NCBI GenBank assembly: GCA_050943115.1
Contig: JBMNON010000006.1
Location: forward strand, 963 to 64,962
From: Patescibacteria group bacterium
GTDB taxonomy: Bacteria; Patescibacteriota; Microgenomatia; UBA12405
Reading direction: 5' to 3'
DNA: 64,000 bases
A model generated the notes under the pieces. That model saw only the letters and a program-made list of their open reading frames with translations, was not told where the DNA came from and searched no databases. Made by a program: the position numbers and the translations under genes. This document shows, in pieces, positions 1,767 to 54,252 of this stretch (position 1 is its first letter; each line of letters starts with the position of its first letter).

Positions 1767-1769
1767 AGG

Positions 1770-2361: not shown

Positions 2362-2392
2362 TAGTTAGCGCCAGGGTGTAACGACTCTGGCG

Positions 2393-9356: not shown

Positions 9357-9375
9357 GCCTAGATACCTTAAACAG

Positions 9376-9405
9376 ACCCTCCCCTGATCGGCGGAGGGTT
9401 TTTTG
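9376..9405 (+). terminator. rho-independent terminator
   Basis: The stem accctcc/ggagggt is followed by ttttttg, just after the Hsp20 stop. Confidence 0.55.
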
Positions 9406-9418
9406 TTACAATTTTTTA

Positions 9419-10807: not shown

Positions 10808-10857
10808 AAGCCCCCGTATTTAAAATACGAGGGCAAATGTTAGATGCTTTTATCCTG

Positions 10858-12831: not shown

Positions 12832-12878
12832 TAGGCACGATTCTAGATAACAGGCAGAGGCAAGTCAAAAGTAATTTT

Positions 12879-13616
12879 TTACCGTTTCGGTGATTTTGCG
12901 GTGAAGAAATTTTTCAGCAAAGCCAATTCGGACAAAGTTAGATATCGATACTCTTTTGCCTTTAGTTCCCCTAATTTTATCGGTCCGATAGCTATGCGAT
13001 GCAGAGAAATTATGCGGAGGTTGAGTTTGGCAACCATGCGCCTGATTTGGCGATTCCGACCTTCCCTCAGTTGAATCTTGAGATTGGTCCTGCCGTTTTT
13101 TTGAGAAATTACGGAAGTTTGAGTGGGTAGTGTCACCCCATCCTCAAGTTCAACCCCATGTCGTAGTTTGAAAATTTTTTCCGGGCTAATCCGTCCTTCG
13201 ACGGTAACCAGATAAGTTTTGGGCAGGTGGTAACGAGGGTGGGTGGCCTTTAGTGATAAGTCGCCATCATTTGTTAAAAGAATAAGACCACTTGAATCAT
13301 AATCCAGTCTCCCTATGGGATAAAGACGGGCATCGGAGTCAATTAAATCGAGAACTGTTTGCCGATTGTGAGTATCAGTGGTGGAGGAAATTACACCGGT
13401 TGGTTTATTTAGGGCGATATAAATATAATTTGGTTTTTTATGGTTAATATTACGGCCATTTACTTCAACTTGATCCGATAGCGGATCTATCTTTTGACCC
13501 AAGACAGCCTTGCGACCGTTAACGATTACTTTATTTTTTTCAATCAATTCGTCTATGTGCCTTCTGGAGGCGATACCCAAAGAGGCCAGATACTTATTTA
13601 GACGGACTTTATCCAT
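12879..13616 (-). CDS. pseudouridine synthase, RsuA/RluB family, with N-terminal S4 domain
   Basis: The S4 region reads RLNKYLASLGIASRRHIDELI and the catalytic motif is GRLDYDSSGLILLTNDG. Confidence 0.8.
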   Translation of the reverse strand: MDKVRLNKYLASLGIASRRHIDELIEKNKVIVNGRKAVLGQKIDPLSDQVEVNGRNINHKKPNYIYIALNKPTGVISSTTDTHNRQTVLDLIDSDARLYPIGRLDYDSSGLILLTNDGDLSLKATHPRYHLPKTYLVTVEGRISPEKIFKLRHGVELEDGVTLPTQTSVISQKNGRTNLKIQLREGRNRQIRRMVAKLNLRIISLHRIAIGPIKLGELKAKEYRYLTLSELALLKNFFTAKSPKR

Positions 13617-19534: not shown

Positions 19535-19778
19535 CGGAAACCTCCTTGAGACGCCAGAATAAGTTATCAGTATCAAGAATCAATCGGAAAAAGATATTGT
19601 CGGCAGACACCGAGAAAACATGGTAAAGGGTTCGGCCTGAACGGTAAGTGTGATGATAGCCAAGTTTTTTGATGAGATATTGGCGGCCATCCCAGATAAC
19701 GGTGACGGGCAAAACCTGGCGGGTTTTATGATTAAATTCGAGGGAGACGGAAACCGGCACGTCGATAATCTGAATCAT
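19518..19778 (-). CDS. small hypothetical protein translationally coupled to dinB (its stop overlaps the dinB start region)
   Basis: ORF track only. The dinB Shine-Dalgarno lies inside its 3' end. No motifs recognised. Confidence 0.35.
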   Translation of the reverse strand: MIQIIDVPVSVSLEFNHKTRQVLPVTVIWDGRQYLIKKLGYHHTYRSGRTLYHVFSVSADNIFFRLILDTDNLFWRLKEVSDGLPG

Positions 19779-20646: not shown

Positions 20647-21832
20647 ATGAGCGGAGGATATAAGAAGATAATGCAACAACTGTTTGAAGTGGAGAATAAA
20701 TTATCAGGCAAGGAGTACTTATTATCGATTTATTATCCAACATCGGGCTTTAATAAAGAAAGAGTAAAATTGGAGCTAAAGTCTTTTATCCTGTCCAATT
20801 TCAGAAGGGAGAGTAACTGGCCAAATTTAAATAAACTACACCACCAAATCGTGGAGGGAATTAGCGAGAATATCAATTACTTAGAAAAAGTAGATAAGGG
20901 ATTGGCAATTTTCCTCAAATTTAACCCCAAAGAACTGAAGAAAGGCAGACAGCAAGAAATCGGCGAAGAAGATATATATATCAATATTGGGAAAAGAGCC
21001 GGAGGAGGAGTTTTTTGTAGGAAAAACTTTTAATTACGACCAGTTGCTTTGGCAGGAATATAGGGCTGAGAATGTTCTGCTTTTGAACATTAAACCGGAA
21101 GAAGCGAATGTATATAAGCTGGAAAACGGAGAGCTGGATAGAATTGAAAGTATGAAAAATTCTTTTGTTTCGGATAGGGAAAATGAGTATTTGGAGCGGT
21201 TTTCCCCCACCGGTTATAAAAACGTGGTTCATGGAACCGGTTCTGATAAGTGGAAAAGGGATTTGGAAGATAGAATTGTCGGCTTTTTAAACCAGATTAT
21301 AGAAGCCATAAGAAGAGGGGATAAATATGATGGTGACTATAACGGTTTGGTGATAGTTTATTCCGACAATGTTAAAGATGTGATTAAAAAACTGGTGGAT
21401 GAGCTGGTAAAGATTATGCCGACATTTGACAAACCAATACTTATTAACAAAAATATCCCCAATGAAAATCAATTGAAAGAAGAAGTTATCAGGGCGATAG
21501 AAGATCACAAGAAAAAGAATAAGATGGAGTATCTGACCTGGGTGATGGAGGAGGACCGGGATAACTTTGTTGAGGGATGGAAAAGTGTTTTGAAAGAATT
21601 GAGAAGGCAAAAAATTGAGACATTGTTTTATAAGGAAGGATCTAGCAAACAAGGTTATTTGATGGATGAGGAGCTGCTTTATTTAAATCCAGTAGAGGGA
21701 GCGAATAATTTAAGGAGGTTGAATAATATTGCACCGTGGCTTCTTCGAAATGTTCTAGAGTACGGTGGTAAAGTAATGGTGTTTGATAGGGAAGAAGAAG
21801 TGCCGGAGGTGGCGGCTAGGATCAGATACTAA
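20647..21832 (+). pseudogene. eRF1/Pelota-superfamily (bacterial eRF1-like) protein whose reading frame is split at a T6 homopolymer (ORFs 20647-21033 and 20987-21832)
   Basis: The downstream ORF has a central-domain-like HGTGSDKWKRDLEDRIVGFLNQIIEAI (compare eRF1 HGRGGQSALRFARLR..., with GGQ absent). Its C-terminus GGKVMVFDREEEVPEVAARIRY resembles the domain-3 ending GG..ILRY. Deleting one T from ttttttg at 21011-21016 fuses the two ORFs in frame. Confidence 0.45.
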
Positions 21833-21833: not shown

Positions 21834-24800
21834 TTAGGAAGAAGCTTTTACATTGAGGCTTCTCTCCTCCACCAAGCGCCGGCGCAGGGAAAAGACAAAG
21901 AAGATGAGGACCAGGAAGTTGAGGGCCGAGGGATAAAGCAGGTAGGAGTAGGCCACGGAGACGATAGCCAGGAGGGTGAGGTGGGAGTAGTAGCGCCGGA
22001 GGAAGGCATCGAGGTGAGGCAGGAGACGGTCGAGAAGACGGGGGCGGGACTGGGGCCGGGCGGTTAGCTCCAAATTAAGTTCCAGGCGAGTGGCCTTAAA
22101 GAGGAGGGGCTGGGTCAGGGGTGAGTAGTTAGCCTTTTTGACGGTCAGGGTGTAGGAACCGGGAGCCGGATTGAGAGTGTAAAAGCCGGAGGCATCAGTC
22201 AGAGTGGAGTAAATGCGGGAGCCGGAAGTCAGGGTGACGAGGGCTTTGACCAGGGGCTGGTGGCGGGCATCAGTCACCTTACCCCAAAGGAGCTGCTTTT
22301 GGCGCTTGAAGCCAAAGAAGAAGGAGACGGGAGCCAGGAAGAAGTAGAGGGTTTGCTGGAGAAGGAGGCGGAGACTAGTCCAAAGAGACAGGGAGGCGGA
22401 TGAGGCCGAGGACAGGGCCGACAGGCTGGTTTGGGCGGCTTGGGCCACCAGGTAGGCAGCCGAGGTAACAGCAGCGGCTTCGGAAGTAGTGGCAGCCACC
22501 TGACCCAACTGGGAGGCGACGGGAGTCTCCTGAAGCTGGTAGCGGGTGGAGTCAATGGTGGTGGTGATAGTCTGGAGAGTATGGGTCAGGGGTTGAGGCA
22601 GAGCGGCAAGCAGAGGCGGAGTTACTTCGGGGACGATCTGAGCCAAGGGCGGCTCAAGGCTGCCGGGAGGCACCTGGTTATCAGTGCCAACCAGAGCGGT
22701 GGTGGGAGTGGGCTGGCTGGAATCGGCCAGGGCAGTGGTCGGGGTGGCAGCCGAAGCCTGGGGGGCGGGAGTCAAACTATCAGTGGCGGCAATGGCGGAA
22801 GAAGTGGGAGTAGGCTCAGAGGCGGAAGTGGTAGGCGTGGGAGTGGAGGTGGCAAGAGGAGAAGAGGTCGGGCTGGCTTCCGGGGCGGGGCTGGTATCCC
22901 CTACTTTGGTAGTGGGTGAAGGCAGAAGAGAAGCGGTGGGAGTCGGGCTGGGATCGGGGGCGGTAGTGATAGCGGTAGGCTGGCTAAGGGGAGTGGGAGT
23001 GGTTGAAGTAATGGCGATGACAGAGCTGGTGGGCGAAGGTTGGGAAGGGGTTGAAGTCGGTTGACCGGGAGCTGGAGTGGCAGTCGGTTCTCCGCCGCCA
23101 ATGGCCGGAGTGGTGGTAGGCTGGCTAAGGGGAGTGGGAGTGGCTTGAGGCAGAGGGGTGGGAGTAGCTTTGCCTTTTTTGGCCAGATAAACTTTGGTAG
23201 CAAAGTCCTGGCGGGAAGAGACGGCCAGGGTACGGCCCTGGGAAGTGGCCTGATAGTAGTAGGTGGTGTCGGGGTTGAGATGAGTGAGAGTGACGATGTG
23301 GTTTTTGGTGAGGGTGTCGGAAGCTACCGAATAGGCCAGGTCGGTGGAGGCGGCAAAGTGAAGAAGAGTGGTGGCCGGGTGGTTGGTGGACCAACGGACC
23401 TGGGCGGTGGTGTCGGTGATCTTGATAACCCGGAGGTTTTTGATCTGGGTGGAGTTTTTGGCCAGCCAGGTCTGGGCCTTGTCGAGGATGTTATCCTTTA
23501 CGGCCTGGGAGACTTTGGCGGGAAGTTTAGTGAGGGTGTCGGTAATGGTGTCAACGATGTGGCTGATGTCAGCGCCACTTCTCTTGGCAATGTTTTTGAT
23601 GGTGTCGGCAATGGTTTGGGCCAGGGAGTTGGCTTTCTTTTCGGCCTGGGCCGGTTTGGCGGATTGGGCCTGGGCGATTTTTTGTTCGATGAGGGCCCGC
23701 TCTTCGGCGGTGGCCGAGGACAACTTGGTATCCAGGAGGGCCTGAAGGTCGGCCAGTTCGCCGGGGGTAAGGTTGAGGGCCAGGGTGGCAAACTGATGGC
23801 GAGCGTCATAGGTGTAGGTCTTACCGTGGGACATGACCTCGTAGTAGTAGGTGGTATCGGGATCGAGGTTACTGAGGGTGATGGTGTGGTTTTTGACCAG
23901 GAGATCGGACTGGACATCGGCACCGTAGTCGTAGGAGGCGCCATAGTTGACCTTGGAGGTTGAGGGGTGGTTGGTTTTCCAGGAGATGAGGGCAGAGTTG
24001 GTGGCAATTTTGGTGGCTTTAACATTGCTAATCTTGGTGCGGGAGTTTTCAAACCAGGTGTTAAACCAGGACTGGGCTGAGGAGAGGAGGGAGTCCTTGA
24101 AGGCCTGAGACAGGTAGGGAATGGAGTTGATAAGGTCAGTGAGGGCGCCCAGGAAACGGGCGGCCGGCTCCCGGCCCAAATCGGCCAGCTTTTTCCAGAT
24201 GTTTTTAAGGGTATCGACGGCCTTGGTAGCAAAGTTGTTCCAGGCTGATTCCTTGTTACTGTCCTTGGCTTTAACAATAGTGTCAGCTTTCTTTTGAAGC
24301 TGCTGCTTGTCCTGGGCGGAGGCCGAGGAGAGCTTGTCATCGATGAGGGTTTCGATTTGCTCTTCTTCCTGAGGGGTAAAGTCACCGACTTTGAGAGTAA
24401 AGGTGATGGTTTTACTGGTATTGCCGGCAGCGTCGGTGGCAACAAGGTCAAAGCGGTAGGAAGCAGGAGGCAGGGGTTCCTGGGGAGTAAAGCTGAAGGC
24501 GGCACACTTGTCGTCGGTCTGGAGGCTATTGTCGGTGACAGGGTCACCACTCTGGCACCAGGCGGCAGAGGCGGCCAGGTTAAGGGTGGCAGTGGAATGA
24601 AGGGAATCGAGCCAGTAGGGATTGAGGCGAGTGATGGAAAGCTCCAGGGTTCGGGGGCCGGCGGCAACTTTGGTGTTCTTGGAGTCACCCTTGAGCAGAT
24701 CCTTGATCTGACCCTGAAGGCTGGGCGTCAGGTTGGAAGTGGAGTAATCAGATTGCTTGGGGTCAAAGCTGAGGTTGTTGAGAGAGGTGAGAGTCAGGAG

Positions 24801-27800
24801 GGGGTCGGTGGTATCGACAAAGACGGTTTTGGAAGAGGACGGCTGGCCTTGGCTGGTGTTGGTCTTGAGGGTGTAGTGGCGGGCGCCTTCCTTGAGAGCG
24901 CCCTTGTTTTGATTGCCGGTCCAGGCCGCGGCATCGTGGGTAGTCAGGGTAACAGTATTGTTGTCCTCGGTGCCATCGGAGAAGCCGGAGTAGCGGGCGG
25001 TGTATTTATCCTGGCGGTAGTCGGAGGTGCCGGAGGCGGGAATGCCAGTTAAACTCCAGTCACCCTTGGAACCATTGTCAACTTCCAGATCAAAGGAGGA
25101 GATACCATGGGCCGTGTCAGAGGACAAGGTCCAGGAGAAGGCCGGACGGGAGGAGTTGGTGTAGGAGTGGTGGGCGGGAGAGTCGAGGGAGACGGTAGAG
25201 ACGGCGGGAGTGGGAGTCGGGGTGGGAGTAGGAGTGGGAGTGGAGGTGGGGGTAGGAGTAGGAGTGGTGGAGGGAGCCGGAGGCTGGGAGGGGGTGGTGG
25301 GAGTGGGAGTGGGAGTGGGAGTGGAGGTGGGGTCGGGGGTTGGAGGTTGCGGATCAGTGCCGGCAACATCACCAATATTGAGTGTTGTAACCGAATACAT
25401 ACCCAAATCAGCATTAACAGGGTTACTTAAGCTTAGGAAAAGAGTTTTGGGAGTTTCGGGTTCAGGATTAAGAATAGAAACGGGTATGGTAGCGTAATAG
25501 GAATCGGAGGGGATAGTGGCAGTACCGGAAGTAAGAAGATAGTCAACCCCATTCTCAGCCGTACCACCAGTAATCTCATAATCGACAGTAACGGGTGAAG
25601 CAGATTTGCCGTTTTGAAGGATTAATTTGATGTCTGTCTCCCCTACTCCCTGAGGAGAAGCAGTATAAGGATGGGCAAACTCAATACGGGGAGGAGCCGT
25701 ATTGCCTATACCATCGCCAAAAGTAGCAAATGAATATTGGGATACTTGGGCGGGCAAGATTTCACTAAATTCTCCACCTACATGAACAGTGTTGTTGTTT
25801 ATAAGAAGTTCATAAACATCACAATAACCATTCTCAGGGGACGGATCCCATGAAGTGGCCGCTCCCGGTGCTTGGATAACACAATCACTTTGCTCAACCA
25901 AAACTACATCATCCAGCCAGCCTTTGTCTTCACCTACGCTAGAGGAACTGTCTTTACCATACAGCCAAGTAAAAGTATGATCGCCGGCATCAATGTTATA
26001 GGTAAATTCCGCCCAATCGGCACTCCCGGAGATACGATGCGTATAGCTGGTTCGCGAACAGGAGGGATTGTTGTGGCAAAAAACAAGATAGTCATATCCT
26101 GACTCGGAGCTAACTTTCCATGAAAATGATAAAGAAGCAGCTTGATCCGCAGTGACATCATAGGAAAGCGATGAAGATTGATTATGGGTAATAACACCTG
26201 ACTCGGCAGACATAGCTCCATCAGATGAATAGGTAGAAGAATGAGACCAGAGCACATCACCACCGCTACTCCAATTTTCCGGGGGGAAGACGTCACCTTC
26301 AAAAGATTCGGCGGGTCCGAGAGGCTCCAGGGGAGGACAGGTGGTACCGACCATGGTGGGCAGGAAAACTTCTGCAGCACAATGCCTTGATTGGCCGCCA
26401 GCATTCATAAAGTAACCTCCGGCTAAAATGGAATCCCGGGTCAGGTCAATAGTATAGACCGTGCTATCAATTTGAGGATCCCATTCTACAGCTGAACCAT
26501 CTTCTGTACTGACTGCAACCAAATAATATTTGTCGTCCTCTTGGTTAAAATCGGGAAAGTCGCCAGCGATATAAAGAATATCTTCGCTTGCAGCCAAATC
26601 ATATACTCCATCGTAGTTGCCACCGGCATCACCGGGGTACCAACTATCAAGCTGACCCGAGGCGATATCAAAAGCAGCAATGTTATATCTGGTGTAGTCA
26701 TCAATATAACTAAAATCGCCGCCCACATAAAGACGCGACCCGTGGGGAAGAATTTTATTTACCAATCCCCAGACAGAAGGGCTCCAAGATGTGGGAATAG
26801 AGTTGCTTCCTTCAAAGGAAGCTAACCCCTCACGGTCATATCCATTAATTTTTTCAAAATATCCTCCGATATAAATAGTATCTCCGGCTACGGCAATGTC
26901 GTAAATATAATCATCAGAATAGGGACTCCAAGATGTGGTTTCACCACTGTCAACGTCTATGGCGCCAAGATAATTTCTTGTCTGGTTGTTTATTGATAAA
27001 AACTCTCCGCCAACAATAATGTCATTTCCTTTACGGGAAATGGCATTAACCATACCACGGACAACAGGTAACCAGGATTCGTCCACTCTGCCGTCGGGAC
27101 CAATTCTAACCAAATTGTTAACTATAGTGCCTCCCGCTGAATTAAAATCCCCTCCCATATAAACCCTGTCGCCGTCAAATGCAAAGCTGTTAACATTCAT
27201 GCCATATTCAATATGGGGTGCCCACGGTGTAAGCTGCCGGGTTGACAGATCAAAGGCAGAGGCACTATGTCGAAAGTCACCATTCATATCCCAATAAACG
27301 CCGCCGACATATAGCAGACCGTCGTTTATGGCCAGATTAACAGTCCAACCCCAATATTTGTTATAAGGACTCCAGTCACGGGCTTCACCCGTAGAAGCAT
27401 CTACCGCAGCTAATTTATACAGTTGACGACCGCCAATTTCGTTGAAATGACCGGCAGCGTAAATATCGGATTCATAAGCGGCAATTGAACGAACCTCGTA
27501 ATTTGGCGCCGGTTGAAAATCGGGAATGGCTACGCCGTTTAAATCAAAAGCTGCTAAATTTTTTATTGGGGTTGAGCCATTGACTGTGGCAAAAGTACCG
27601 CCTACGTAGATATTCCCGCTGGCACCAATATCTATTGTATTTACGATATAGCTGCTGATATTGGGATTCCAATGGGTAAGATAAACCGAGCTATCGACAC
27701 AGGGGTACTGTGTATATTCGTATACTCTAACATTATCAAGCCAACCTCTGTTTGCTCCCGTAGAGTACGTTGACGTTCTCTGGTGCTTCCAAGTGATGGT

Positions 27801-30800
27801 GTGTTCTCCGGCTGAAATTGGAACAAAAACCTCCCTCCAATCCTGGTTACCAGAGATTCTCTGGTGAATGGGCACGTCGGAATATGTACAGTCAGGGTTA
27901 TCAATACAATAGAACAAGTAACCTCCTGCGCTATAAGTACTTACTTTCCAATTAAACTTTAAAACACCATCTTTTGAAAGATTTACCGTGGTTTGCAGGT
28001 AGGATGTTTGGCCGTTTGAAATAACCGGTGACTGGGCTGATTGGCTACCATCAAAAGCTGAAGTGCCTATTCCCCAATTTAAATTGCCCCCGGTGATCCA
28101 GTTATCCGGAGGGAAAGTGACCCCTTCGAAGGATTCTTCTACTACCGTCGAGTCGTTGACACAGTCGGGGCATGAGGGAGTCCAGACCGAGGCTGCTCGA
28201 TTTCTTATGGCAGTAGTACCAACGGAAGCGGTTACTGAAGTAAAATATCCGCCCAAGTAAAGCTGTTTTCCGTCAGAGCTAAGTTTTAGACTTTTGATGT
28301 AACTATTTGTTGTCGGCGTCCATTCTGTTATTAAACTACCATCTGCAGCGTTAAGTGCGGCCAATCGACTTCTCGATTGGCCATCAATTTCAGTGAAATA
28401 ACCACCGACGTAAAGAATTGAATTATCGGGGCTAAGGGCTAAAGAATAAACATCATCGTTGGGGTTAGGACTCCAATCGGGATCAACCGAGCCGTCGGGA
28501 AGAACATGGATTAAGTTGATTATTTCACTTGGTGAGTAGTTAATGTGGTTGAACCAACCGCCAACGTACCAGCCCCCATTCCCATCCGGGACTATGGTGT
28601 AAACTGAATCGCCATAGCTACTAGGGTCATCTAAATGGGGAAAATTACCAGTTACTTTGCCTGTGTTTTTGTCGATAAGTGCGGCTTTCCCGGTAGCCGG
28701 AGCGAACAACTCGAACTCTCCACCAATATAGGTATAACCTTCCGATTCATATAAGGCTTGTGCTTCATAAACAAAACCACTTTCCTGTTCGGGTCCGCGG
28801 CCAAGCATGTAATTATGATTGGAAAATTGCATGGTAGGGGTCATGTCTGTCCCGGTCACAGGTAGGGGTATGGATGCAGCACTAGGTATGGGGGGCGGAG
28901 TAGGAGTAGCTGTAGGAGAAGGGGCTAGGGTTATTGTCGGCCAATAAATAGGATTGGAACAGTCAAGTTCGGATTCAGGTACATAATCATTAAACTGGGC
29001 TAAGCTTTTGCAGGAGCTTCCGTCAACGGTAATAAATTCACCTGCCAGAAATATTGTATTGCCAATAAATTTTGCAGTATTAATAGTGCTACTTATCGAT
29101 GGTTTCCAATCGGCAACCGAATAATCCGACATATTTATTATGGCCGCACGAGTAGCTCCAACCCCGGCAATATTCCAAAAAGAACCGGCAACGAGCAATT
29201 GTGATTCGTCAGAGTTAAATGACATGGATTTAACAGTACCGTTATTAGAATCGGAGACAGAATCCAATAAGTTACCGTCTGAATCTACCACAACAAAATC
29301 AGGACGGTACAGCCTGTTTACATGACTGAATTCTCCACCAATAAATATTTTAGAACCATCGGAGGTAGGTAGGATAGAGTAGACATAAGAGTCGGAGTTC
29401 CCGGATTCTATCGGGCCGGGGTACCAATCGTTGAGAGTACCGGTGGTGGCGTTAACGGATCCAATACGGGTACGGTATTCACCAGCCAAAGCTTCAAATT
29501 CACCACCGATATATAAATTATTGTTATTATAAGCTAGGGCGAGTACCCTGTCGGCAGCGTCAGGAGCCCAGTCAAGCAAAGAGTTGTCTGATGTGTCAAA
29601 AGCAGCTAAGCGATAACGAACTTGGTCCCCTACCCTTGTAAAATCTCCACCTACATACAAAACCGATTTATCATGATTAAACTCGAGTGTCCTAACGGTG
29701 CTATCTAGAAGAGGATTCCAATTTACTATAGTTTGAGAACAAACATCAAGGGCGGCAAGTCTAGAAAAATATTGAGGACCTTCAAAGCTAGTAAAAGAGC
29801 CGCCGACATAAACTATGTTATCTTTGGCAGCTATTGAATACACGTATGAAAAAGGATTTGGGGCCCAATCTTTGGCAGCTCCGGTGACGGCATCAAGAAT
29901 AGCAAAATAACGCCGGTAAACTCCACCTACCGATTTAAAATCACCGCCAATAAACAATTTGGAGGAATCCGGGTCGTAAAAAAGTTCCTGGACATAACCG
30001 TCAGCCATTGGGGGATTAATAATTCCTGAACCATCCGATTTATTTATAACAAAAAGATGGTTGAATATTATGCCAGTCCCAGTGGAGGCATTATCAAAAC
30101 GGCCACCGACATAGATTTTATCCCCGATGCTTTCAAGTGCATATCCGTAGAAGTAATTACTGGTTGGCAAGACTGGATTCCAGTCGAGTGTTTCTCCAGT
30201 CAGGCTATTAACAGCAGCGACCCTATTTCTAGAAAGACCACCAATGGTAGTAAAAGAACCGGTTAACCAAACTTTATCATTGTCATATAAAATGTCATAA
30301 ACATAACCATTTGGTGCCGGGTTGAAGTCAAGAGCAGTTGCCGTTGAAGTGTTAATGGCCGCAAAATAAGTCCTAAGTTGGCCTCCGATATTTATATCCC
30401 TAAAGTCCCCGGCTAAATAAATAACGCTATCGTCATTATTTAAGTCGATGTCAGCAATGTTATATTGATAAACTGAGCTTATGGGATTGAAGTCAGTGGG
30501 CTGACCTGACAAATCAATCTGGGCTAAACGATTACGGGTGACACCACGGATGGTGGTGAAATTTCCAGCTACATATATTAATTCTCCGGTACTATTGGTA
30601 GTAATTGCCCTAACGGTGTTGTTGGAGTTGGGGTTCCAAAGCCTGGCTAAACTGGTGCCGCCACCGCATGGATAACTTTCATACTCATAAATCCGGACAT
30701 TATCCAACCAGCCACGGTTGGCACTGTAATTCAAGGTCGAGGTTCTCTGATTCTTCCAGGTAAGAGTATGACTACCGGCGATAAGGGGAACGGTAACTTC

Positions 30801-31670
30801 TGCCCAATCTGTAGTCCAATTTATTCTGGCAGTATAACCGGAGCTATAAGTGCAAGAAGGATTATCAACACAAAAATAGAGATAGTTACTTGAAGCAGCG
30901 CTGATTTTCCAAAAAAACTTTATCTCACCATCTTTGGCCATATTGACAGTGGTTTCCAAATGGGAGGTTTGGCCGCTTTGTAAGATAGGTGTTTGGGCTG
31001 ATTGGCTGCCATCAGTTGCCGAGGTACCGATCTCCCAATTGGCATGTCCACCGGTTATCCAACCATCCGGTGGGAATGTTCCTCCCTCAAAAGATTCTGT
31101 GACAGAAGAAGATACCGAGCATGTTTCCGGCTGAGGCGTGGTTCGCAGGGCAGCAATACGGTTTCTGGTAGTAGAACCATTATCTACAGTTGTAAAACTA
31201 CCACCTGCATACAAAGTTGACTTATCAGGGCTGAGTGTTAATGCTCTGACTTCATAGTTTGGGTTGGGGGCCCAACTGGTATCGATGCTACCGTCGGCAA
31301 GAATATGGGCGAGATTTTTGATATTAGTACCTGGTATTGCCGGGAAGGTACCGCCAACAAACCAACCACCACTACCATCCGGAACGGAAGCGTAAATTGA
31401 ACCGTTTCCGATTTTTAAAAAGTTAGGTGTTACGCTACTACTGCCAATATCATATAAAGCACCAGCGCCGGTTTGAGGTCCAACATATTTAAAATCACCC
31501 CCCAGGTAGACATTATTACCGTCAACTTCCATATCATAAACCTTGCCATTAGTAACCCAGAGATTACTGTTTGGTGTGGTTGATTGGGCGTTGGTAAAAG
31601 AAGAGGAAAAGAAAAAAAGTAACAATAGGAATATTGATAAAAATAGCGGCTTTAATTTTTCTAAATGCAT
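21834..31670 (-). CDS. giant (3,278 aa) secreted, membrane-anchored surface protein: delta-60-type beta-propeller repeats, 3 MAM-like modules, Calx-beta, 2x(helical plus FN3), PT/S/A tract, CarboxypepD_reg-like domain, C-terminal TM plus RRR tail
   Basis: There is a signal peptide [29 protein letters not shown]. Dozens of ~55-60-aa repeats follow the pattern YVGGxFTxVxGxxRxxLAAxDxxxGxxxxWxP. Three copies of an ESFEG(G/V/D)xFPP(D/E)xW... module are present. A Calx-beta-like segment reads [18 protein letters not shown]...[12 protein letters not shown]. Two FN3-like segments end in DTTYYY. The C-terminus has a hydrophobic helix followed by RRRLVEER. Confidence 0.85.
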
Positions 31671-31739: not shown

Positions 31740-32894
31740 TTATTGCTCTTGATATTCTTGGGAACCGTTGCGGATCATGAGCTCTTTGGGCAGGAATTGG
31801 CGCTGGCTATTGAAGCGCTGATCTTCCTGACCGTGGATGGTGATTTTGACGGCTTTGACACCCGGAACTTGCAGAAGTGTTTTATTGAGCTGAAATGAGG
31901 CTCCTTTTGCCTGACAGTCATCTAATTCCGCTAGCTTTTTATTAAAATCAAGAGTAATAATTCCATCACTATTATCGACCTTTTCCAGTTTTATATTTTT
32001 ATTAAAATTGGTGAAATGTTTTTTCTTGTCATCATCCTGACGAGGGCCTTTAATTAAGGCATCGACAATAGAATTGATTACCTTACCCTTAATTTCTACA
32101 TCCTGCTTTACCGGACTTACTCTGGAACAATCTTTTTCAGAGTTGTTGCTACTGGGAAAGTACAAATTAAAATTACGATCATATTTAACATCAAGCTTTA
32201 GAGATAACTTGACGGATTGAGTGATCTTACCTTTTTCGTTTTTGTGGAATACTTCCAACTGAAGCGGATCTTCACTTTTAATGTTAACCGTCAACAGATC
32301 GAAATTTATAGGAAAAAAGAACTCCGCATACTCTTTACCGCCATCAGAGTTTATATCACAAGAAGCATCTTTGATGAGATAATCACCGGTGCGGCGGTTT
32401 TTTAAATTCAGATAAACCTTTGAATCCTTAATATTTGTAGAACCATAAATTATTTTGCCAAGCGAAATCAATTCGTTTGAACTTACTGAAGTTAAGACTA
32501 TAGAGGGGGCGGTTTTTATCTGAAGCTTGTCGGCAAGGTAATATTTTTTGTTTTCCCTAAAAGCCCCTTCGATATTAACCCAAAACCCCGGCTCCAGGGC
32601 GGTTATTTGTATGGAATTGTTTTTTTCATCAAAAGCTGCGGTTGACGGAGTGAGAGCCACCCTTATTTCCCTATTTTTTTTGTCCTCAACGACGAGGATA
32701 TTTTGACTGGGAAGATAATCAATAACCCGGGCGTAGATATTTTTTTCCGGAAACAGACGATTTTTTATTATTAGTAATACGGGAACTAGAAAGACCGCCA
32801 AAACAATGATCTTTGTTTTTTTATCTATTTTGGTGAAGCCGAGTTTAATTTTTTCTAAATAGAACTTAAGTTTTCTCTGGGTTCGCCTTTTCAT
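31740..32894 (-). CDS. membrane-anchored GerMN-domain protein
   Basis: There is an N-terminal TM helix. The C-terminal segment ALIKGP...GIITLDFNKKL...LLQVPGVKAVKITIHGQ has the GerMN pattern. Confidence 0.55.
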   Translation of the reverse strand: MKRRTQRKLKFYLEKIKLGFTKIDKKTKIIVLAVFLVPVLLIIKNRLFPEKNIYARVIDYLPSQNILVVEDKKNREIRVALTPSTAAFDEKNNSIQITALEPGFWVNIEGAFRENKKYYLADKLQIKTAPSIVLTSVSSNELISLGKIIYGSTNIKDSKVYLNLKNRRTGDYLIKDASCDINSDGGKEYAEFFFPINFDLLTVNIKSEDPLQLEVFHKNEKGKITQSVKLSLKLDVKYDRNFNLYFPSSNNSEKDCSRVSPVKQDVEIKGKVINSIVDALIKGPRQDDDKKKHFTNFNKNIKLEKVDNSDGIITLDFNKKLAELDDCQAKGASFQLNKTLLQVPGVKAVKITIHGQEDQRFNSQRQFLPKELMIRNGSQEYQEQ

Positions 32895-32923
32895 ACTTCC
32901 CTATTCTACCTCATCCGGATTTC

Positions 32924-32985
32924 TCTCTCCTCCACCAAGCGCCGGCGCAGGGAAAAGGCAAAGAAGATGAGAACCAGGAAGTTGA
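32924..32985. repeat. 62-bp near-identical (60/62) direct copy of the 3' end of the giant gene (copy 1 at 21860-21921), encoding the TM plus RRRLVEER tail; remnant ORF fragment
   Basis: Direct comparison shows tctctcctccaccaagcgccggcgcagggaaaag[a/g]caaagaagatgag[g/a]accaggaagttga. On the minus strand the fragment translates to [26 protein letters not shown] and stops 18 nt upstream of the GerMN gene start. Confidence 0.7.
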
Positions 32986-33090
32986 AGTGGGTAATTATAA
33001 ACAAACAAGCATTTCCATGGATAAATGTTGTTTAAATCCAGTCTTTTTAAGTAATTGATTGTTTTATCTTAGTATGGTTTAATCAGGGCG

Positions 33091-39629: not shown

Positions 39630-40402
39630 ATACTTTGTTTGGCCGATTTAATAACTAAAGACTCAAAGTCAACCTGATCGAAAGCGATAATTATTTTTAT
39701 AATTTGTGAAAGGGTCCGAGGAGACAGAAAGCGATGGGAATTAAAGGACATAAAGGTCTGAAGCGTGCCCGGCATGAGACAAGTGACTCGGATACCAAAG
39801 CTTTTTAGTTCCCGGGCAAGAGCAAAAGAGAAGCCTTCCAGGGCATACTTGGTAGCCGCATACAATGTCTTGCCGGGAGAGATGTTGGTATTGTGACTGA
39901 TCTTGGAGCCAATATTAATAATTGTGCCGTTTCTTTGAGATTTCATTGGGGGAATTACGGCTTTGGACATAAAAAAAGCGCCTTTCAGGTTGGTGTCGAA
40001 AATCCGATCATACTCTTCTTCGGAGACATTCTCCAGTGGTTTTTCCAGAAAAGTTCCAGCATTATTGATAAGTACATCTATTCTGCCGAACTTGATGGCA
40101 ACATCGTTTATAAATTTTTGGGTTTGGACCGGTTGGCAGATATCGACAGAACGGAGCATAACCTGGTCTTGGCTATCAGTTGTGAACTCCTTATTCAAAT
40201 CAGTCAGATTACGTGAACAGAGAGCCAGAAGAGTACCGGAATCAATCAGTTCTTTTGATATGCATTTCCCAAGCCCCCTGCTAGCTCCAGTAACAACTAC
40301 GACTTTATCTTTTAGATGGGTGTCAAGCGAGCTGACATCGGGAGGGGATTTATTATTTAATTTTGGCAGAAGAAACATGAATGTCTTCGATTGTTGAACC
40401 AA
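39626..40402 (-). CDS. short-chain dehydrogenase/reductase (SDR)
   Basis: It has the TGASRGLGKCI Rossmann motif, NNAG, and a Y...K catalytic pair (YAATK). Confidence 0.8.
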   Translation of the reverse strand: MVQQSKTFMFLLPKLNNKSPPDVSSLDTHLKDKVVVVTGASRGLGKCISKELIDSGTLLALCSRNLTDLNKEFTTDSQDQVMLRSVDICQPVQTQKFINDVAIKFGRIDVLINNAGTFLEKPLENVSEEEYDRIFDTNLKGAFFMSKAVIPPMKSQRNGTIINIGSKISHNTNISPGKTLYAATKYALEGFSFALARELKSFGIRVTCLMPGTLQTFMSFNSHRFLSPRTLSQIIKIIIAFDQVDFESLVIKSAKQSI

Positions 40403-41582
40403 TAATTTTTTCTCTGGTTTTTTGGTAAAAGTCCCTCATCCGAGCCGAGACCTGCCGCCAGGAGTTTTTACGGCCATAAATTATATTTCGCCTTTGCATA
40501 GCCAGTACATGCGGGGAATTTTTATTACTCAGGACATAATTGATTTTTTGGCCTAAGGCTTGGTGATCCTTGGTATCAATTAGAAAACCGTTGATGTTGT
40601 CGTCAATCAAGAAAGGTAGGGCTGTATTGTCGGCAACTAAGCAAACCAAACCTTGGCTTAAGCCTTCATGGACCACATTACAGAAACTTTCCCAAAGAGC
40701 CATATGAACCATCATTTGGGCATGTTTGATGAGGTAGAATTTGTCGATACCATTCACTACACCAACAAATATGACTCTCTTTTCCAGACCCAAATCGGTT
40801 ATCAGCTGAATAAGGGAGTCGTAGTAGTTGCGATCCGAAATGGGACCGGCGATGACATAACTAAGATCGGAGGGGGTCGAGACAAGAGCTTTTATGGCTG
40901 TTTCGTAATTTTTGATGGGATATATGCGACCAATTTGAATGATATATTTACCAAATTCTTTTACCTGATTTTTTATCTGCTGGCTAGCTTGATTTTCTAA
41001 ATCGGCAAAAGCCTCATCCTCAATACCGTTATCGATAACTTCAATTAGTTTAGGATTTAAATGTTTTTTAACCATTTCCTGTTTTTCCCACTCCGAAACC
41101 GCCCGGACACCATCGGCTGACAGGTTAATAAGAAGAACCCCGAGAGTAAAGTGGTAAATCCTTTTTAGAAAAGCGACAAGAGGGGGAAAGACAGACCACT
41201 CCGGATTAAAACCGCCGTGAGGAGTAATAATCAAAGAATAGTTTTTCCTATTAATAATTTTTAAAAAAAGGGTGAAGAGCATCAGCTGGAAATGAGGAAA
41301 GACGTTGAAGTTGTGCAGGCAAAGAAAATCTGTCTGTCGCCAGTCAATGTTCGGAATAAAACCAAAAAGACCAAAGGGGTACCTCCTGACCTTTAGGCCT
41401 TTTATCCTGCACTTTCGAGGCAGGCAGTTTTTGTCCAGCAAGGTGTTTTGGGAAGTGTGGACAGTAAGGCTCCAATTTTCCTCTATAAAATGACAATAAG
41501 TTTCGCGAATATTTGTTTCGATGCCGGCAGTTACCGGACAAAAATATTTTGTAACCACGTCAACTTTTAATTTGTTTTTCAT
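40353..41582 (-). CDS. GT4-family (GT-B) glycosyltransferase
   Basis: The C-terminal half has an E..E-type GT1/GT4 motif (WESFCNVVHEGLSQGLVCLV). Confidence 0.7.
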   Translation of the reverse strand: MKNKLKVDVVTKYFCPVTAGIETNIRETYCHFIEENWSLTVHTSQNTLLDKNCLPRKCRIKGLKVRRYPFGLFGFIPNIDWRQTDFLCLHNFNVFPHFQLMLFTLFLKIINRKNYSLIITPHGGFNPEWSVFPPLVAFLKRIYHFTLGVLLINLSADGVRAVSEWEKQEMVKKHLNPKLIEVIDNGIEDEAFADLENQASQQIKNQVKEFGKYIIQIGRIYPIKNYETAIKALVSTPSDLSYVIAGPISDRNYYDSLIQLITDLGLEKRVIFVGVVNGIDKFYLIKHAQMMVHMALWESFCNVVHEGLSQGLVCLVADNTALPFLIDDNINGFLIDTKDHQALGQKINYVLSNKNSPHVLAMQRRNIIYGRKNSWRQVSARMRDFYQKTREKIIGSTIEDIHVSSAKIK

Positions 41583-42520
41583 AGTCGGGCATATGAAGGG
41601 AAATAATTTTTAACAAATTGGCGGAAACTGACTCCCCTGTCAGAGTACGCTGCCTTGAATTCCCTAAAATCATGTGAATTATCGACACCAATTCGGGGGA
41701 TAGCCAGAGGATCGGTGGTGGGAGAAATTTGGCTGTCATCCATAGAAAAAGCAAGGGAATAACCAGCGGCCTCCACCATGTCCCGAATCATTTTGTTGTA
41801 GACTCCTTTAGGATATGCGAAAAATTTAATGGGAATTCCGTACTTGTCTTCCAGTTGTTTTTTAGAAGTAACAACTTCTTTGTAAAGATGGGATGGGGTA
41901 AGTGTGTTGAAATCAGCGTGGGTAGCGCTATGGCAGCCGAATTCCCAGCCGTCTTTGTCTAAGATTTTAATTTGATCTTTCGTAAGAAAACCGGAAACAG
42001 CTCCGAGCTGAGAAAAATTGGCATTCGCGGGGTCAGAAAGCAGGAAGACAATCGGCTTAAAGTAAAGTCGATTGATAATATCTCTTATGTCAAAAATGCT
42101 TTGAAGGCCATCGTCAAAAGTAAGAAGAAAGCCAGAAATATTTGATTTGTGTCCGGTAACAAAATCATAAAGTTTTGACGAAGAAATGAAGTTGGCGTAA
42201 GTTGCCAGATGAGTGAGTTGTTTCTCAAACTGGTCCGGGTTAACGGCAAAACGCCAGTCGCTTGTGACGATGTCATGGTAACAGAGAACTTTTATTCCGG
42301 GATACTCCCCTTTTATTAAGTTGTTGGAATGGTCAATCAAGTGATAAATTAACCTTCTTATCAAGGTTTTTGGTTCAGTCATGGGGGTAATCCAAATATT
42401 TAGTTGAAGAGGAGATTTGCCAGATCCCTTTGTTAAAGACATAAGGTTTAATCTTGGCCTTAATCTTTGAAATTGCCAGAATATATAAGTAAAAAAAAGT
42501 ATGAAGAGGATACTGGGCAA
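41579..42520 (-). CDS. polysaccharide deacetylase (NodB-homology, CE4)
   Basis: The NodB motifs TFDDG and HSATHADF are present. The annotated start overlaps the upstream GT2 gene by 146 nt, so the internal ATG at 42382 or 42442 may be the true start. Confidence 0.75.
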   Translation of the reverse strand: MPSILFILFFTYIFWQFQRLRPRLNLMSLTKGSGKSPLQLNIWITPMTEPKTLIRRLIYHLIDHSNNLIKGEYPGIKVLCYHDIVTSDWRFAVNPDQFEKQLTHLATYANFISSSKLYDFVTGHKSNISGFLLTFDDGLQSIFDIRDIINRLYFKPIVFLLSDPANANFSQLGAVSGFLTKDQIKILDKDGWEFGCHSATHADFNTLTPSHLYKEVVTSKKQLEDKYGIPIKFFAYPKGVYNKMIRDMVEAAGYSLAFSMDDSQISPTTDPLAIPRIGVDNSHDFREFKAAYSDRGVSFRQFVKNYFPSYARL

Positions 42521-43313
42521 AGATTCTTAAGAAAGCTTTTAGGGCCGGAGCAACAGGGATGCTGTAATGATTTTTTACGAATTGGTAACCATACTCAGAG
42601 ACAAGTTCATCTCTGGCCTGAAAAAACCTCTGACTTTGTCGTAAATGATCCTCAACATTTTGGGGCAATTTGAAAATGGCGACCGCATCTTTAGCGTACT
42701 GATATTTAAAGCCAAACTTTTTGGCGAATAAGTAAGAATGAGCATCTTCGGCCGTAAACTGTTTAAAGTCAATTTTATTGTAGAGCCTTTTGGAAAAAGC
42801 CCGGGCAATACCTTTGCAGGTATATATATTATTGCCTTGGTTGATGTTTTCAAAAAGATAATTTTTGAAAATGTTGCTGACAGCAATTGTCTCCTCAATA
42901 AAATTTTGGGGCGGGATTTCTCGGAGCCTAACAGACGTCAGGTCTGACTTTCTGTCAATAATGGGTCTGACTAACTTTTCAATAAATAAGCTGTCTTGGG
43001 GCAGGAGATCGGCATTAAGAAGAACAAGGATGTCGGTGTCGGTATAGGAAATGATTTGATTTTGGCGGTAAGGGGCACCTTTACGGAAATAGTTTTCCAG
43101 AACAAGAAGGCCGGGAAGGTCAAAACTACTGGCGATTTTGACAGTATTGTCATTACTGCCATCGGAAGCAACAATTACTTTTTTTAAGATATAATCTTTT
43201 TGCTCCTGTTCTTTTAGAAGATTTAGTAAGTTGCCGATATTAGCCTCTTCATTGAAAGCGGGAATGCCAATTGTAACCGTAAGTTTATTTTTATTTCCCA
43301 TAACTACTTTCAA
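42375..43313 (-). CDS. GT2-family glycosyltransferase
   Basis: It has IGIPAFNEE and a DxD-like VASDGSNDNT. Confidence 0.75.
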   Translation of the reverse strand: MKVVMGNKNKLTVTIGIPAFNEEANIGNLLNLLKEQEQKDYILKKVIVASDGSNDNTVKIASSFDLPGLLVLENYFRKGAPYRQNQIISYTDTDILVLLNADLLPQDSLFIEKLVRPIIDRKSDLTSVRLREIPPQNFIEETIAVSNIFKNYLFENINQGNNIYTCKGIARAFSKRLYNKIDFKQFTAEDAHSYLFAKKFGFKYQYAKDAVAIFKLPQNVEDHLRQSQRFFQARDELVSEYGYQFVKNHYSIPVAPALKAFLRIFAQYPLHTFFYLYILAISKIKAKIKPYVFNKGIWQISSSTKYLDYPHD

Positions 43314-46300
43314 TAATTTTTAAAAACTGGTCAGTGCTCTTGGACCAGGAAAAGTTTTTAGACCATTTCAAGCTACCCTTTTCCAGCTTATGCCTTAACT
43401 TTTCGTTATTTATCAACAGGTTTATTTTTTTTGCAAATTCAGGCGCATTGCCCTTGGTGACTAAAAAACCGGTGTGGGGGTTTTGGACGGAATCACGAAG
43501 ACCCGGGACATCTGAAGCAATAACGGGAGTACCGGAAGCATTGGCTTCTATGGCTGATATACCCCATCCTTCCATAGATGAAGGCTGAACAAATATCCAG
43601 GATTGGCTAAGTAGTTTTACTTTTGCTTCTTCGCTAACTTTACCTAAGAATTGAACAAACTTGTCCAACCTTAAGTCTTTTACTAACTGCTCCAGATACT
43701 CTCTACTTTCTCCAAATCCGGCAATTTTTAAAGTCGCCTGCGGGTTTTTCTGAACTACCAGCTTCATGGCTCTTATTAGGGTATCTATAGATTTGTAGGC
43801 TTTAAGACGGCCTAAATACAGAATCGAAGGGTTAATGGTTTTTTTCTGAGGATGAAACTTACTATCTTCGACTCCCGGATTAATAATTTCGATAGGAAAG
43901 CTAGTGCCGAATCCGAGTTTTTCCATGTCTATTTTTGAAGAAGGAGAAATTGTGACCATTTGAGTATTTTTGTAAACCTTGGGCATAAGTTTTCCTTCCA
44001 GAAAGCAGGCCAAAGAAGCCATGGGGGCAGAGAGATTTTGGCGAAAGACATTCTGATGGATGTGATAGAGAAGCCCAATTTTTGGTTTACGACTAAAAAG
44101 AGGTGAAAAGAAAGGGACTCCGTTTATAGAGTCTATGATTACATCTGTCTTTTTTCTAAAAGAGAAGAAGTATTTGATGAAGGCCCACAAATACACCGTA
44201 TAAAAACCGCCTTTCCTAACAACTTTCACACCATCAATATATTCTTGCGAGGGTGAGCGGCGATCATTGCTGCAAAATAAAGTGACGTTGTGACCAAGCG
44301 ATACCAGCCTTTTGGCGATTTCATGAACATAAACTTCGGCGCCCCCTGACCAAATGTGCCGGATATCCCGCCAATTGAAAATTAGAATGTTTAACTTTTG
44401 CTTTTCTTTTTTCGGAGAGTCTTTTAGGTGAAGTCCATGAATAGTTTTCTCCCAATAGTGGGGCTTAACTATAAGTTGATAGAAAGCAATTCCGGCGGCC
44501 ACCGAGGCCATCAACCAGTAAAAGGGTACGAGAAAAACATACTTCATCAGCCACCAGTATTTCCTTTTGGCCAAACCTATCATGTAATAGTAGAGAAAAA
44601 GAAAATTTCCAAATACAAAGGATGCCGCAGCCATATAGAAAATTACGGGGGGATAAAGGGACTCGATAGTGGGGCCGACCAGACTGTTGAGGGCAAAGTA
44701 AGAGATGGTTGTCAGCCACATAAACGGATTAATAAGCATAAAGGCAATCTTGCCACCAATAGAAAGATGAAAAAGTACAGTATGCCAGCCATGACGACGG
44801 AAAAAGCTGATGGGGTCACGAAGATGAACAAGATAAGTTTGAATGTAGCCTTTAACCCAACGGGAACGCTGCCGAAGCCAGTTTTTGGGGTTACTGTTAG
44901 CTTCTTCAAAAGTAACGGAGTCGACGATGGCGGTTTTGGCTCCCCTTTTGAAAAGGCGAATACCAAGATCCGCGTCTTCGGTGACGTTAAAAGGGTCCCA
45001 ACCTTCAAGTTCGAGTAAATCTTTGGTTCTAAAATGATTGCTGGTTCCGCCAAGAGGAATTACAGTATTAACAGTTTGAAGCCCGGTGAGAATAACGTCA
45101 AACCATAGGGAATATTCGGCTGTAAAAAGGCGGGTAAGAAGGTTTTGGTTGGAGTTATAGTAGTTGAGTTTGGCCTGAATGCATTTAACGTCAGAGCTGA
45201 CTTGCTTAAAAGCCAGGTACACCTTTTTTAATTGAAGAGGATCCGGCGAATCTTCGGCATCGTAGATTACAAGGAAATCCCCCTTGGCATGATTTAATCC
45301 GTAATTACATGCCTTGGGTTTAGTTTTAGGTTGAGATTCGGGGACAATTAGGATACGGATATATGGAGGCAAATCCAGTTCATAGGCGGTTTGAACGGTT
45401 TCCTTATCGTCCTTCTCCAAAAGGAGGATAACATCTAGTTTATCTTTGGGCCAGTCAATTTTACTTATAGAATTAAGCAAGTCCGGCAACACCTTAGCTT
45501 CCCGATACATGGGGCAAAGTATGGTATAGACAGGCAGCTCTTTGTCGCGAAGGGTATTAATTTTTTGCGAAGAGATTTCAATTTCCGGCGGAAAATGAAG
45601 ACTGCGTAAAATCAGAATCAGATTGAAGGTGAGATCAATAAAATAAGCAAAAGTGAGAATGGCGGTAAGGGCGATTAGGGTGTTTAAGGGAGAGATTGCT
45701 AAAAATCCCAGAATCAAGGCGATTATCGATAGTAAGGCAATTTTTTGCCAGAGAACCAGAGTATGAACAGCGGAATATTTATGTTCAAGGGTTGTGTGAG
45801 TAATAAACTTAGCCCGATGGTGGATAACTCCAGCCCCGGTCATGGAATTAACGTCACCGGGATCTATCTTTAGCGGTTTTTGCGAAGTAAGATTGAATTT
45901 AACAAATTGATTGCCAAATTCCCTGAACAAAGAGAGTAGTTTTATTTTGGATTTACGGTATGAATGACGATTAATCAATGCTTTAGTCTGGCCGACGGTA
46001 AATCCCATTTCGAGAGAGGTCCGGATTAGAGGGGTTAGTAAATTAAATTTTGTAATATCGACGGCTTCAATTTGTCTGAGAATGTCACTTTTGACCACAA
46101 AGGGTTCGATGGTGCCGGAAAGTCTAATTTTTTTGTAAGAAAAAGATCCGGGTTTCTTTTCTACCCTTAATTCAGAAGCGAGAACAAGTCCGTAAAGCTG
46201 TGTTAGTTCGAACATTTCAGACATAATTTCAGGGGGATAATCAGAGTCGATATCCAATACGGCGATGTAAGGAGAGAAAGATAGAACTAAAGCTTCCAGG

Positions 46301-46542
46301 ACTGAAAAGGTCTTGCCCGATTGGCTGCGCTTTTTTTTGTACTCCAAGGGGTAATATTTAGACAGCACTCTTACAGTCTGCCGCAGGCTACCGTCCCGAC
46401 TTTCATCTAAAATTATGGCTTTATAAGCAATGTTGTTTTTGGTTAATTCGAGATTTAAGCGCTTCAAATAGGATGATAAGGGCTTGGTCTGACTTTTGGT
46501 CAAAATAATCACATCCAATAGTGTCAAGGCATTTTTTGGCAT
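43291..46542 (-). CDS. 1,083-aa tripartite fusion: N-terminal GT2-like domain, a processive cellulose-synthase-like GT2 (D, DxD, TED, QxxRW) with TM helices, and a C-terminal GT4 (GT-B) domain
   Basis: The synthase region has YDAEDSP, VTEDADLG and QRSRWVKG. Multiple TM helices flank the synthase domain. The GT4 region has EGWGISAIEANASGTPVIASD. Confidence 0.75.
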   Translation of the reverse strand: MPKNALTLLDVIILTKSQTKPLSSYLKRLNLELTKNNIAYKAIILDESRDGSLRQTVRVLSKYYPLEYKKKRSQSGKTFSVLEALVLSFSPYIAVLDIDSDYPPEIMSEMFELTQLYGLVLASELRVEKKPGSFSYKKIRLSGTIEPFVVKSDILRQIEAVDITKFNLLTPLIRTSLEMGFTVGQTKALINRHSYRKSKIKLLSLFREFGNQFVKFNLTSQKPLKIDPGDVNSMTGAGVIHHRAKFITHTTLEHKYSAVHTLVLWQKIALLSIIALILGFLAISPLNTLIALTAILTFAYFIDLTFNLILILRSLHFPPEIEISSQKINTLRDKELPVYTILCPMYREAKVLPDLLNSISKIDWPKDKLDVILLLEKDDKETVQTAYELDLPPYIRILIVPESQPKTKPKACNYGLNHAKGDFLVIYDAEDSPDPLQLKKVYLAFKQVSSDVKCIQAKLNYYNSNQNLLTRLFTAEYSLWFDVILTGLQTVNTVIPLGGTSNHFRTKDLLELEGWDPFNVTEDADLGIRLFKRGAKTAIVDSVTFEEANSNPKNWLRQRSRWVKGYIQTYLVHLRDPISFFRRHGWHTVLFHLSIGGKIAFMLINPFMWLTTISYFALNSLVGPTIESLYPPVIFYMAAASFVFGNFLFLYYYMIGLAKRKYWWLMKYVFLVPFYWLMASVAAGIAFYQLIVKPHYWEKTIHGLHLKDSPKKEKQKLNILIFNWRDIRHIWSGGAEVYVHEIAKRLVSLGHNVTLFCSNDRRSPSQEYIDGVKVVRKGGFYTVYLWAFIKYFFSFRKKTDVIIDSINGVPFFSPLFSRKPKIGLLYHIHQNVFRQNLSAPMASLACFLEGKLMPKVYKNTQMVTISPSSKIDMEKLGFGTSFPIEIINPGVEDSKFHPQKKTINPSILYLGRLKAYKSIDTLIRAMKLVVQKNPQATLKIAGFGESREYLEQLVKDLRLDKFVQFLGKVSEEAKVKLLSQSWIFVQPSSMEGWGISAIEANASGTPVIASDVPGLRDSVQNPHTGFLVTKGNAPEFAKKINLLINNEKLRHKLEKGSLKWSKNFSWSKSTDQFLKIIESSYGK

Positions 46543-54248: not shown

Positions 54249-54252
54249 AGTT

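Follow-up and report, generated by a model that had tools for sequence, protein, structure and literature searches.

The window, by which we mean the whole 64-kb stretch of DNA analysed here, carries a GerMN (Germane-domain) gene and, directly downstream of it on the same strand, a giant surface-protein gene (Table 1). The giant protein is composed of a signal peptide, beta-propellers of the DUF5122/Rax2 type, a Calx-beta domain, two Pur_ac_phosph_N/fn3 domains, PT-rich linkers and a C-terminal anchor. Divergent from GerMN lie a 70-aa ORF and the genes for an NMT1-type binding protein, a histidine kinase and a response regulator. The window also contains genes for LexA, a DinB/IMS-family polymerase and SRAP (SOS-response-associated peptidase), at 1113-1766, 18272-19576 and 53619-54308, and a large glycosyltransferase gene cluster (40353-46542 and 56779-60293); a tRNA scan of the window was empty. 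A literature search returned nothing on GerMN in Patescibacteria, and a preprint on giant genes was found.

Table 1. Features at the GerMN-giant gene locus (positions are those of the window).
Feature	Position	Strand	Basis or remark
Giant surface-protein gene, 3278 aa	21834..31670	minus	Domain searches; collinear with the giant gene of L016
C-terminal anchor module, aa 3107-3278	21834..22352	minus	Domain and alignment evidence
GC3-rich block, about the last 1170 codons of the giant gene	21861..25355 (upstream edge approximate)	minus	GC3 about 0.7, C3 0.5-0.6
Copy 1	21861..21922	minus	Giant-gene codons 3250-3270: third transmembrane helix and RRRLVEER
GerMN (Germane-domain) gene, 384 aa, N-terminal membrane helix	31740..32894	minus	Conserved neighbour of giant genes
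32-codon ORF with TTG start	32906..33004	minus	Holds copy 2 in frame; probably no gene
Copy 2	32924..32985	minus	Probable 62-bp relic coding for the last transmembrane helix and RRR tail; 29 nt upstream of the GerMN ATG
AT-rich divergent intergenic region, from copy 2 to the 70-aa ORF	32986..33090	none	Presumed deletion junction

A repeat search of the window found one family of direct repeats with two copies (copy 1 and copy 2), each of 62 nt and both on the minus strand, which are 97% identical (60/62) and have a spacing of 11,063 nt; no genes other than GerMN and the giant gene lie between them. This search bore out the near-perfect 62-bp duplicate, about 11 kb away, that the initial annotation had described; the position given there for copy 1 was off by one base (21861-21922, not 21860-21921). 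The identity is exact over 34 nt at the coding-sense 3' end of the repeat. One of the two mismatches is synonymous (GTC/GTT), and the other exchanges Val and Ala. In the coding sense, the flanks of the copies agree at 17/60 positions on the 5' side and at 12/60 on the 3' side, that is, they are unrelated and the edges of the repeat are sharp. The repeat lies far beyond chance, because the longest exact direct repeats in mononucleotide shuffles of the window (n=10) were only 14-18 nt long. A dispersed intergenic repeat of the REP/MITE type, with copies at many unrelated intergenic sites, does not fit the 64-kb window, which has two copies, one of them coding; in GTDB species genomes and JGI metagenomes, a degenerate pattern of the tail gave chance matches only. 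Within the 62-bp repeat there is a 10-nt palindrome, GCGCCGGCGC.

Copy 1 begins at the second base of its first codon in the giant gene and is followed there by 8 more codons (SLNVKASS) and the stop; the initial description of it as the last ~20 codons of the giant gene therefore holds as a placement near the 3' end, not literally. Copy 2, as had been claimed, is still in the reading frame of the giant gene, within the 32-codon ORF that starts with TTG. The stop of this frame is 11 nt upstream of the GerMN ATG (32894), rather than the 18 nt first reported. By inspection, no convincing Shine-Dalgarno sequence precedes the TTG, and no gene was called there in any Logan locus spanning the position; in annotation, the 32-codon ORF should not be called as a gene. 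The GC content of copy 2 is 55%, versus 30% and 42% in its flanks, and the GC3 of its 20 whole codons is 0.80. When a profile of the C-terminal module was run against the six-frame ORFs of the window, it matched the C-terminus of the giant gene and copy 2 only (E=5.6e-6 for copy 2). In the 105 nt upstream of copy 2, where 5' remains of a lost gene were sought, local alignment to the 5' region of the giant gene scored no better than shuffles, and no similarity to the module or the giant gene was found.

The anchor starts with helix 1 (aa ~3107-3121), which is followed by a basic stretch and a CarboxypepD_reg domain; helix 2 comes next, and a conserved YSYLLYPS turn leads from it to helix 3 and RRRLVEER, the part encoded by copy 1. 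As a three-helix module of about 170 aa it is conserved in P0010, P0058 and L015. A word-indexed protein search with the C-terminal 197 aa gave no match, probably because low-complexity words dominated the candidates. The same kind of search with an alignment of four module sequences returned P0058 and unrelated CarboxypepD_reg proteins only; an exhaustive search of representatives was dominated by multi-repeat CarboxypepD_reg proteins, and the whole module was covered only in P0010 and P0058.

For comparison of gene order around GerMN, we used the loci of three diverged homologues from a GerMN protein search and the P0058 locus from the search with the C-terminal module. The closest relative found is P0152 (loci L013-L015, including MAG GCA_964544275.1), with a GerMN 45% identical to that of the window. 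Downstream of this GerMN there is a P-type ATPase gene, and beyond it ten tested genes follow in the order of the window at 44-80% identity, including those for a 393-aa protein, an 89-aa protein, YtxH, an 86-aa protein, IMS/DinB, DAO-Rieske, ChaB, an RNase H-like protein and UPF0259. Upstream of GerMN in L013-L015, an ORF ends with ...SYLLYPSTLTLLLLIYLLFSLRYRLVNQKR and a stop codon, 17 nt short of the GerMN ATG. Since each of the three contigs starts within this ORF, it is visible over its last 86 codons only; its tail is 52% identical to that of the window giant protein (82 aa) and 61% identical at the DNA level, with a best blastn segment of 72% over 123 nt (E=9e-13). A similar arrangement was found in a JGI metagenome contig (L019): a gene with this anchor module is present there with its last 244 codons (P0058), and 43 nt after its stop lies a homologue of GerMN (39% identity over 165 aa, E=4e-35).

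The remaining two GerMN homologues, P0153 (L016/L017) and P0154 (L022/L023), are 35% and 33% identical to the window GerMN and show the order GerMN, then giant gene; what lies upstream of GerMN in these loci is either non-coding or an unrelated gene in divergent orientation. The giant protein of L016 is collinear with residues 13-2495 of the window giant protein at 36% identity. Because L016 and L022 have GerMN followed by a giant gene, the downstream giant copy must be old and both arrangements occur in the clade. Both orders, module gene-GerMN and GerMN-giant, are thus old in this clade, and an ancestor with the order giant-GerMN-giant is plausible from these comparisons. The initial annotation had proposed giant gene then GerMN, repeated in tandem, as the ancestral state; the two orders are found in different relatives (L013-L015 and L019 versus L016/L017 and L022/L023). 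The window combines the intact GerMN-giant order with a 62-bp piece of the order with an upstream gene. That one giant gene recently moved from the upstream to the downstream side of GerMN was also considered and rejected, the GerMN-giant order, with a collinear giant gene, being old (L016, L022).

In L013, the P-type ATPase gene (658 aa, 1312-3288) fills the place of the giant gene between GerMN and the 393-aa gene. No homologue of the ATPase was found anywhere in the window, and in a comparison of the post-repeat 3' flank of the giant gene with the 3' end of the relative's ATPase gene, similarity started only at the stop of the convergent gene. The single 393-aa gene of the relative corresponds in the window to two overlapping frames on the plus strand (20647-21033 and 20987-21832), which may reflect a frameshift, a pseudogene or a sequencing error. 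The stop codons of this split orthologue and of the convergent giant gene are 1 nt apart.

The giant gene of the window is a compositional chimera. Its GC3 is 0.30-0.37 up to about residue 2090 and about 0.72 from a PT linker at about residue 2105 (nt ~25355). The high GC3 persists to the last segment measured (codons 2701-3000, GC3 0.64); overall GC is 59-65% down to about nt 22000 and drops past the 3' edge of copy 1 from 62% to 47%. The neighbouring genes have a GC3 of 0.38-0.45. In L013-L015, the tail of the upstream gene has a GC3 of 0.71, versus 0.34 for GerMN of the same genome; the L016 giant gene is low in GC3 throughout. The block is homologous to P0010, a stand-alone 1107-aa gene of ordinary GC3 at another site in the MAG of the relative, at 62% over residues 2170-2834 and 45% over residues 3010-3273. 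The window tail is nearer to the tail of the relative's upstream gene (52%) than to that of P0010, the paralogue in the same genome (35%). In the L020 region 7371-13324, P0010 is not adjacent to any GerMN gene. It is preceded, with a 4-nt overlap, by an 877-aa ORF whose repeats look Kelch-like by eye, and followed by genes for a GT2 glycosyltransferase and a NUDIX protein; a few kb further on there are serine recombinase and restriction-modification genes.

Exact matches in Logan to GerMN, to the 281-aa ORF downstream and to the 70-aa ORF upstream gave unitigs from about 10 sequencing runs. Most of these unitigs have an end within the exact 34-mer, as expected for a k=31 graph, and this was the case at both copies and in several runs; the same repeat accounts for the breaks of short-read assemblies on either side of the 11-kb GerMN-giant segment. 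Copy 2 is spanned, from the 70-aa ORF into GerMN, by two unitigs of separate runs (L006/L026 and L028), and L001 equals window positions 32953-21865 at 100%. The two diagnostic mismatches tell the copies apart consistently. A second strain has the same repeat ends, and both sampled strains have both copies. The arrangement is therefore genuine and fixed in the sampled population and not an artefact of assembly. Every contig sampled from this species has this arrangement, and none of them showed the upstream gene intact.

We interpret copy 2, with a probability of roughly 0.75, as a non-functional remnant: the 3' end of a second giant surface-protein gene, formerly located directly upstream of GerMN. 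Several findings point in this direction. Copy 2 resembles a functional gene well beyond chance, both in its nucleotides and in its match to the module profile. At the syntenic position, relatives in two lineages (L013-L015 and L019) have a homologous tail ending 17 or 43 nt before the GerMN orthologue, on a gene whose 3' end, over the last 86 or 244 codons, is intact as far as visible; this supports the footprint of a deleted upstream paralogue proposed in the initial annotation, which had recommended such a comparison of relatives' loci. The rest of the gene and a credible start are missing, only the 32-codon TTG ORF being left. In composition, the relic (GC3 0.8) is like the 3' block of the giant gene and not like the neighbouring genes (about 0.38), which we also count in favour of this reading. 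The same holds for the greater similarity of the window tail to the relative's upstream-gene tail than to P0010, for the presence of both copies in both strains and for the clustered strain differences in the giant gene, which show it to be subject to recombination. Two negative results weigh against it: no intact upstream gene was seen in the sampled strains, and the 105 nt upstream of copy 2 gave no further trace of the lost gene. As in other relics of a deleted paralogue or tandem partner, we are dealing with an in-frame, non-initiated 3' fragment of parent-like composition at a place where relatives have the homologue.

The relic differs from a slowly decaying gene in being unusually well preserved (97%) and sharply bounded. 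At 97% identity, versus about 61% to the tail of the relative, it must have shared a recent common sequence with the surviving tail. Identity of this degree between unrelated flanks is not what an old in-situ relic alone would show, and therefore an additional conversion or a recent duplication is needed. According to the scenario we prefer, the upstream giant gene was probably co-transcribed with GerMN and held the GC3-rich block, and this block, from the PT linker to the end of the tail homology, would have been copied into or shared with the downstream gene by gene conversion of the GC3-rich C-terminal part. The two 3' ends would thus have been homogenised shortly before the loss. The upstream gene would then have been deleted in this lineage, leaving its last 62 bp (about 20 anchor codons), with the 5' edge of the relic as the presumed deletion junction and its 3' edge as the point at which the lost and the surviving tails ceased to be homologous. 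By an alternative route, the GerMN-giant unit would have been duplicated in tandem recently and most of the first copy deleted. We infer the deletion, the conversion and its direction, as well as the place of the relic in the 5' leader of the GerMN-giant transcript, from the sequences compared here.

The tandem route can also be taken as a complete account of copy 2, without an ancestral upstream gene, and as such it ranks second, although we consider it unlikely. It supposes that a unit of 11,063 bp, from 29 nt upstream of GerMN to giant codon 3270, was duplicated and that the last 62 bp of the almost entirely deleted first copy were joined to the GerMN leader of the second. The high identity (60/62), the two sharp edges, a spacing of exactly one unit length and the end of the repeat 8 codons before the giant stop, as for an arbitrary duplication endpoint, would all follow from it, and so would the junction of tail and GerMN. 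It makes the module gene-GerMN arrangement of the relatives a coincidence, however, and requires a separate, traceless loss of the upstream gene in this lineage; moreover, neither a second GerMN fragment nor further duplicated material was found in the window. Where the lost copy came from and how old it is are the only points on which this account departs from the preferred reading, and copy 2 is a relic either way. More doubtful is the idea that about the last 1100 residues form an exchangeable high-GC3 cassette that is swapped between the giant genes flanking GerMN, copy 2 being its latest scar. In such an exchange, the PT linker, the Ig-like and fn3-like domains and the three-helix anchor would move together, and the conserved tail would serve as the distal homology anchor. 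If true, a cassette-swapping mechanism would remodel giant adhesin-like proteins in episymbiotic bacteria. Conversion of surface-protein genes from partial silent copies occurs at Neisseria pilE/pilS, Borrelia vlsE and the MgPa repeats of Mycoplasma genitalium. The present locus resembles these systems in having a partial copy near an expressed gene and signs of recombination (a mosaic and a compositional block), but it has a single, near-identical, helix-coding copy of 62 bp, without variant information and without an array of cassettes.

A present-day function of copy 2, as a leader or regulatory RNA of the GerMN-giant operon, as a single-helix micro-protein of 32 aa or as a coupled upstream ORF, appears improbable. 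The minus strand has, immediately upstream of copy 2, a TATAAT hexamer that may now serve as the promoter of GerMN, and copy 2, between this hexamer and the GerMN ribosome-binding site (RBS), would probably be transcribed as part of the leader of the GerMN-giant transcript; a scan for consensus promoters found no full promoter in the region upstream of copy 2, and a terminator scan was uninformative. A hairpin is predicted in which the pyrimidine-rich first bases of copy 2, UUCAACUUCC, pair with the GerMN RBS and AUG, GGAAGUAUGAA, and the ORF is open from its TTG to a stop close to the GerMN ATG. However, the fold of 32885-32995 (minus strand, 111 nt; MFE -37.7 kcal/mol, z=-1.7) is not significant, as 14/200 shuffles fold as well or better, and neither copy 1 with its native flanks nor the 62-mer alone shows structure (z=+0.67 and +0.24). 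The families of Rfam gave no match at the gathering threshold in the whole window. The micro-protein, for its part, would have to be translated without a convincing Shine-Dalgarno sequence, from an ORF that is not called as a gene in other assemblies.

Still less probable is that the tail is a sorting signal processed by a sortase, exosortase or rhombosortase and that the 62-mer is a portable cassette between surface-protein genes. Like the LPXTG, PEP-CTERM and GlyGly-CTERM signals, the tail of this secreted giant protein has a hydrophobic helix followed by an Arg cluster (RRR) near the C-terminus; a YPS motif before the helix is conserved in four homologues, and one relative's genome has the module in two genes or more. 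Against this, the tail contains neither an LPXTG nor a PEP motif, and no NCBIfam model, among them the curated models for LPXTG, PEP-CTERM and related signals, matched the 54-aa tail, the relic or the tail of the relative at E<=10, which speaks against a sortase substrate and against a signal of the PEP-CTERM, GlyGly-CTERM or PGF-CTERM type. Unlike such signals, the helix comes directly after another helix and the YSYLLYPS turn, as the third of a multi-pass module with CarboxypepD_reg between helices 1 and 2, and eight residues come after the region of the basic cluster. Of the 40 window proteins that were scanned, none had a sortase, exosortase or rhombosortase domain. When 185,579 species genomes (one per GTDB species) and JGI metagenomes were scanned with a degenerate pattern of the tail, only chance matches (one Verrucomicrobiota MAG) came up. 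Of the C-terminal sorting and recombination cassette proposed in the initial annotation, what survives is a conserved module common to several surface-protein genes, together with the recombination between copies that the 97% identity requires; an LPXTG- or PEP-CTERM-like sorting function is not supported.

The least probable reading takes the copies as attL and attR of an 11-kb integrated or excisable element with GerMN and the giant gene, or as an artefact of assembly. Two near-identical direct repeats of some tens of bp bracket a gene block, as att sites do, one of them overlapping the 3' end of a gene, and de Bruijn unitigs break at both copies. Unlike in an integrative element, no integrase or other site-specific recombinase is encoded between the repeats and the flanking genes lack integrase domains; the gene with the duplicated end lies inside the bracketed block, not outside; and flanking synteny is conserved, the downstream neighbours of GerMN being shared with the relative, where a P-type ATPase gene takes the giant gene's place. 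An artefact is contradicted by the unitigs from two independent runs that span copy 2 in context and by the consistent diagnostic mismatches.

A relic of an upstream giant gene, as we prefer to read copy 2, is in itself routine genome archaeology: an ordinary gene relic and no new element. We take the locus as direct evidence that gain, loss and recombination of giant genes beside GerMN occur within short times in a Patescibacteria lineage. Of greater interest are the GC3-rich C-terminal block and what looks like a turnover of giant genes around their conserved partner, GerMN; the history of this block, whether conversion between paralogues or import, could explain how giant genes are assembled. 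The exact identity over 34 bp could in principle support a rare RecA-mediated deletion of the 11-kb GerMN-giant block.

The second strain (L002/L003/L004/L007) is 1.3% divergent from the window in the giant gene and identical to it in GerMN. The differences are clustered, with 58 in 31453-30454, 46 in 29453-28454 and almost none elsewhere in the giant gene; the indels comprise 6 nt in the PT linker (25319-25324) and 3 nt at 30730-30732. This mosaic suggests recombination or intragenic conversion in the propeller region. The giant gene also has diverged internal repeats, 27940-28137 versus 30901-31098 (72%) and 23236-23321 versus 23824-23909 (76%), which reflect the propeller/lectin units and the two Pur_ac_phosph_N units and are possible substrates for intragenic recombination.
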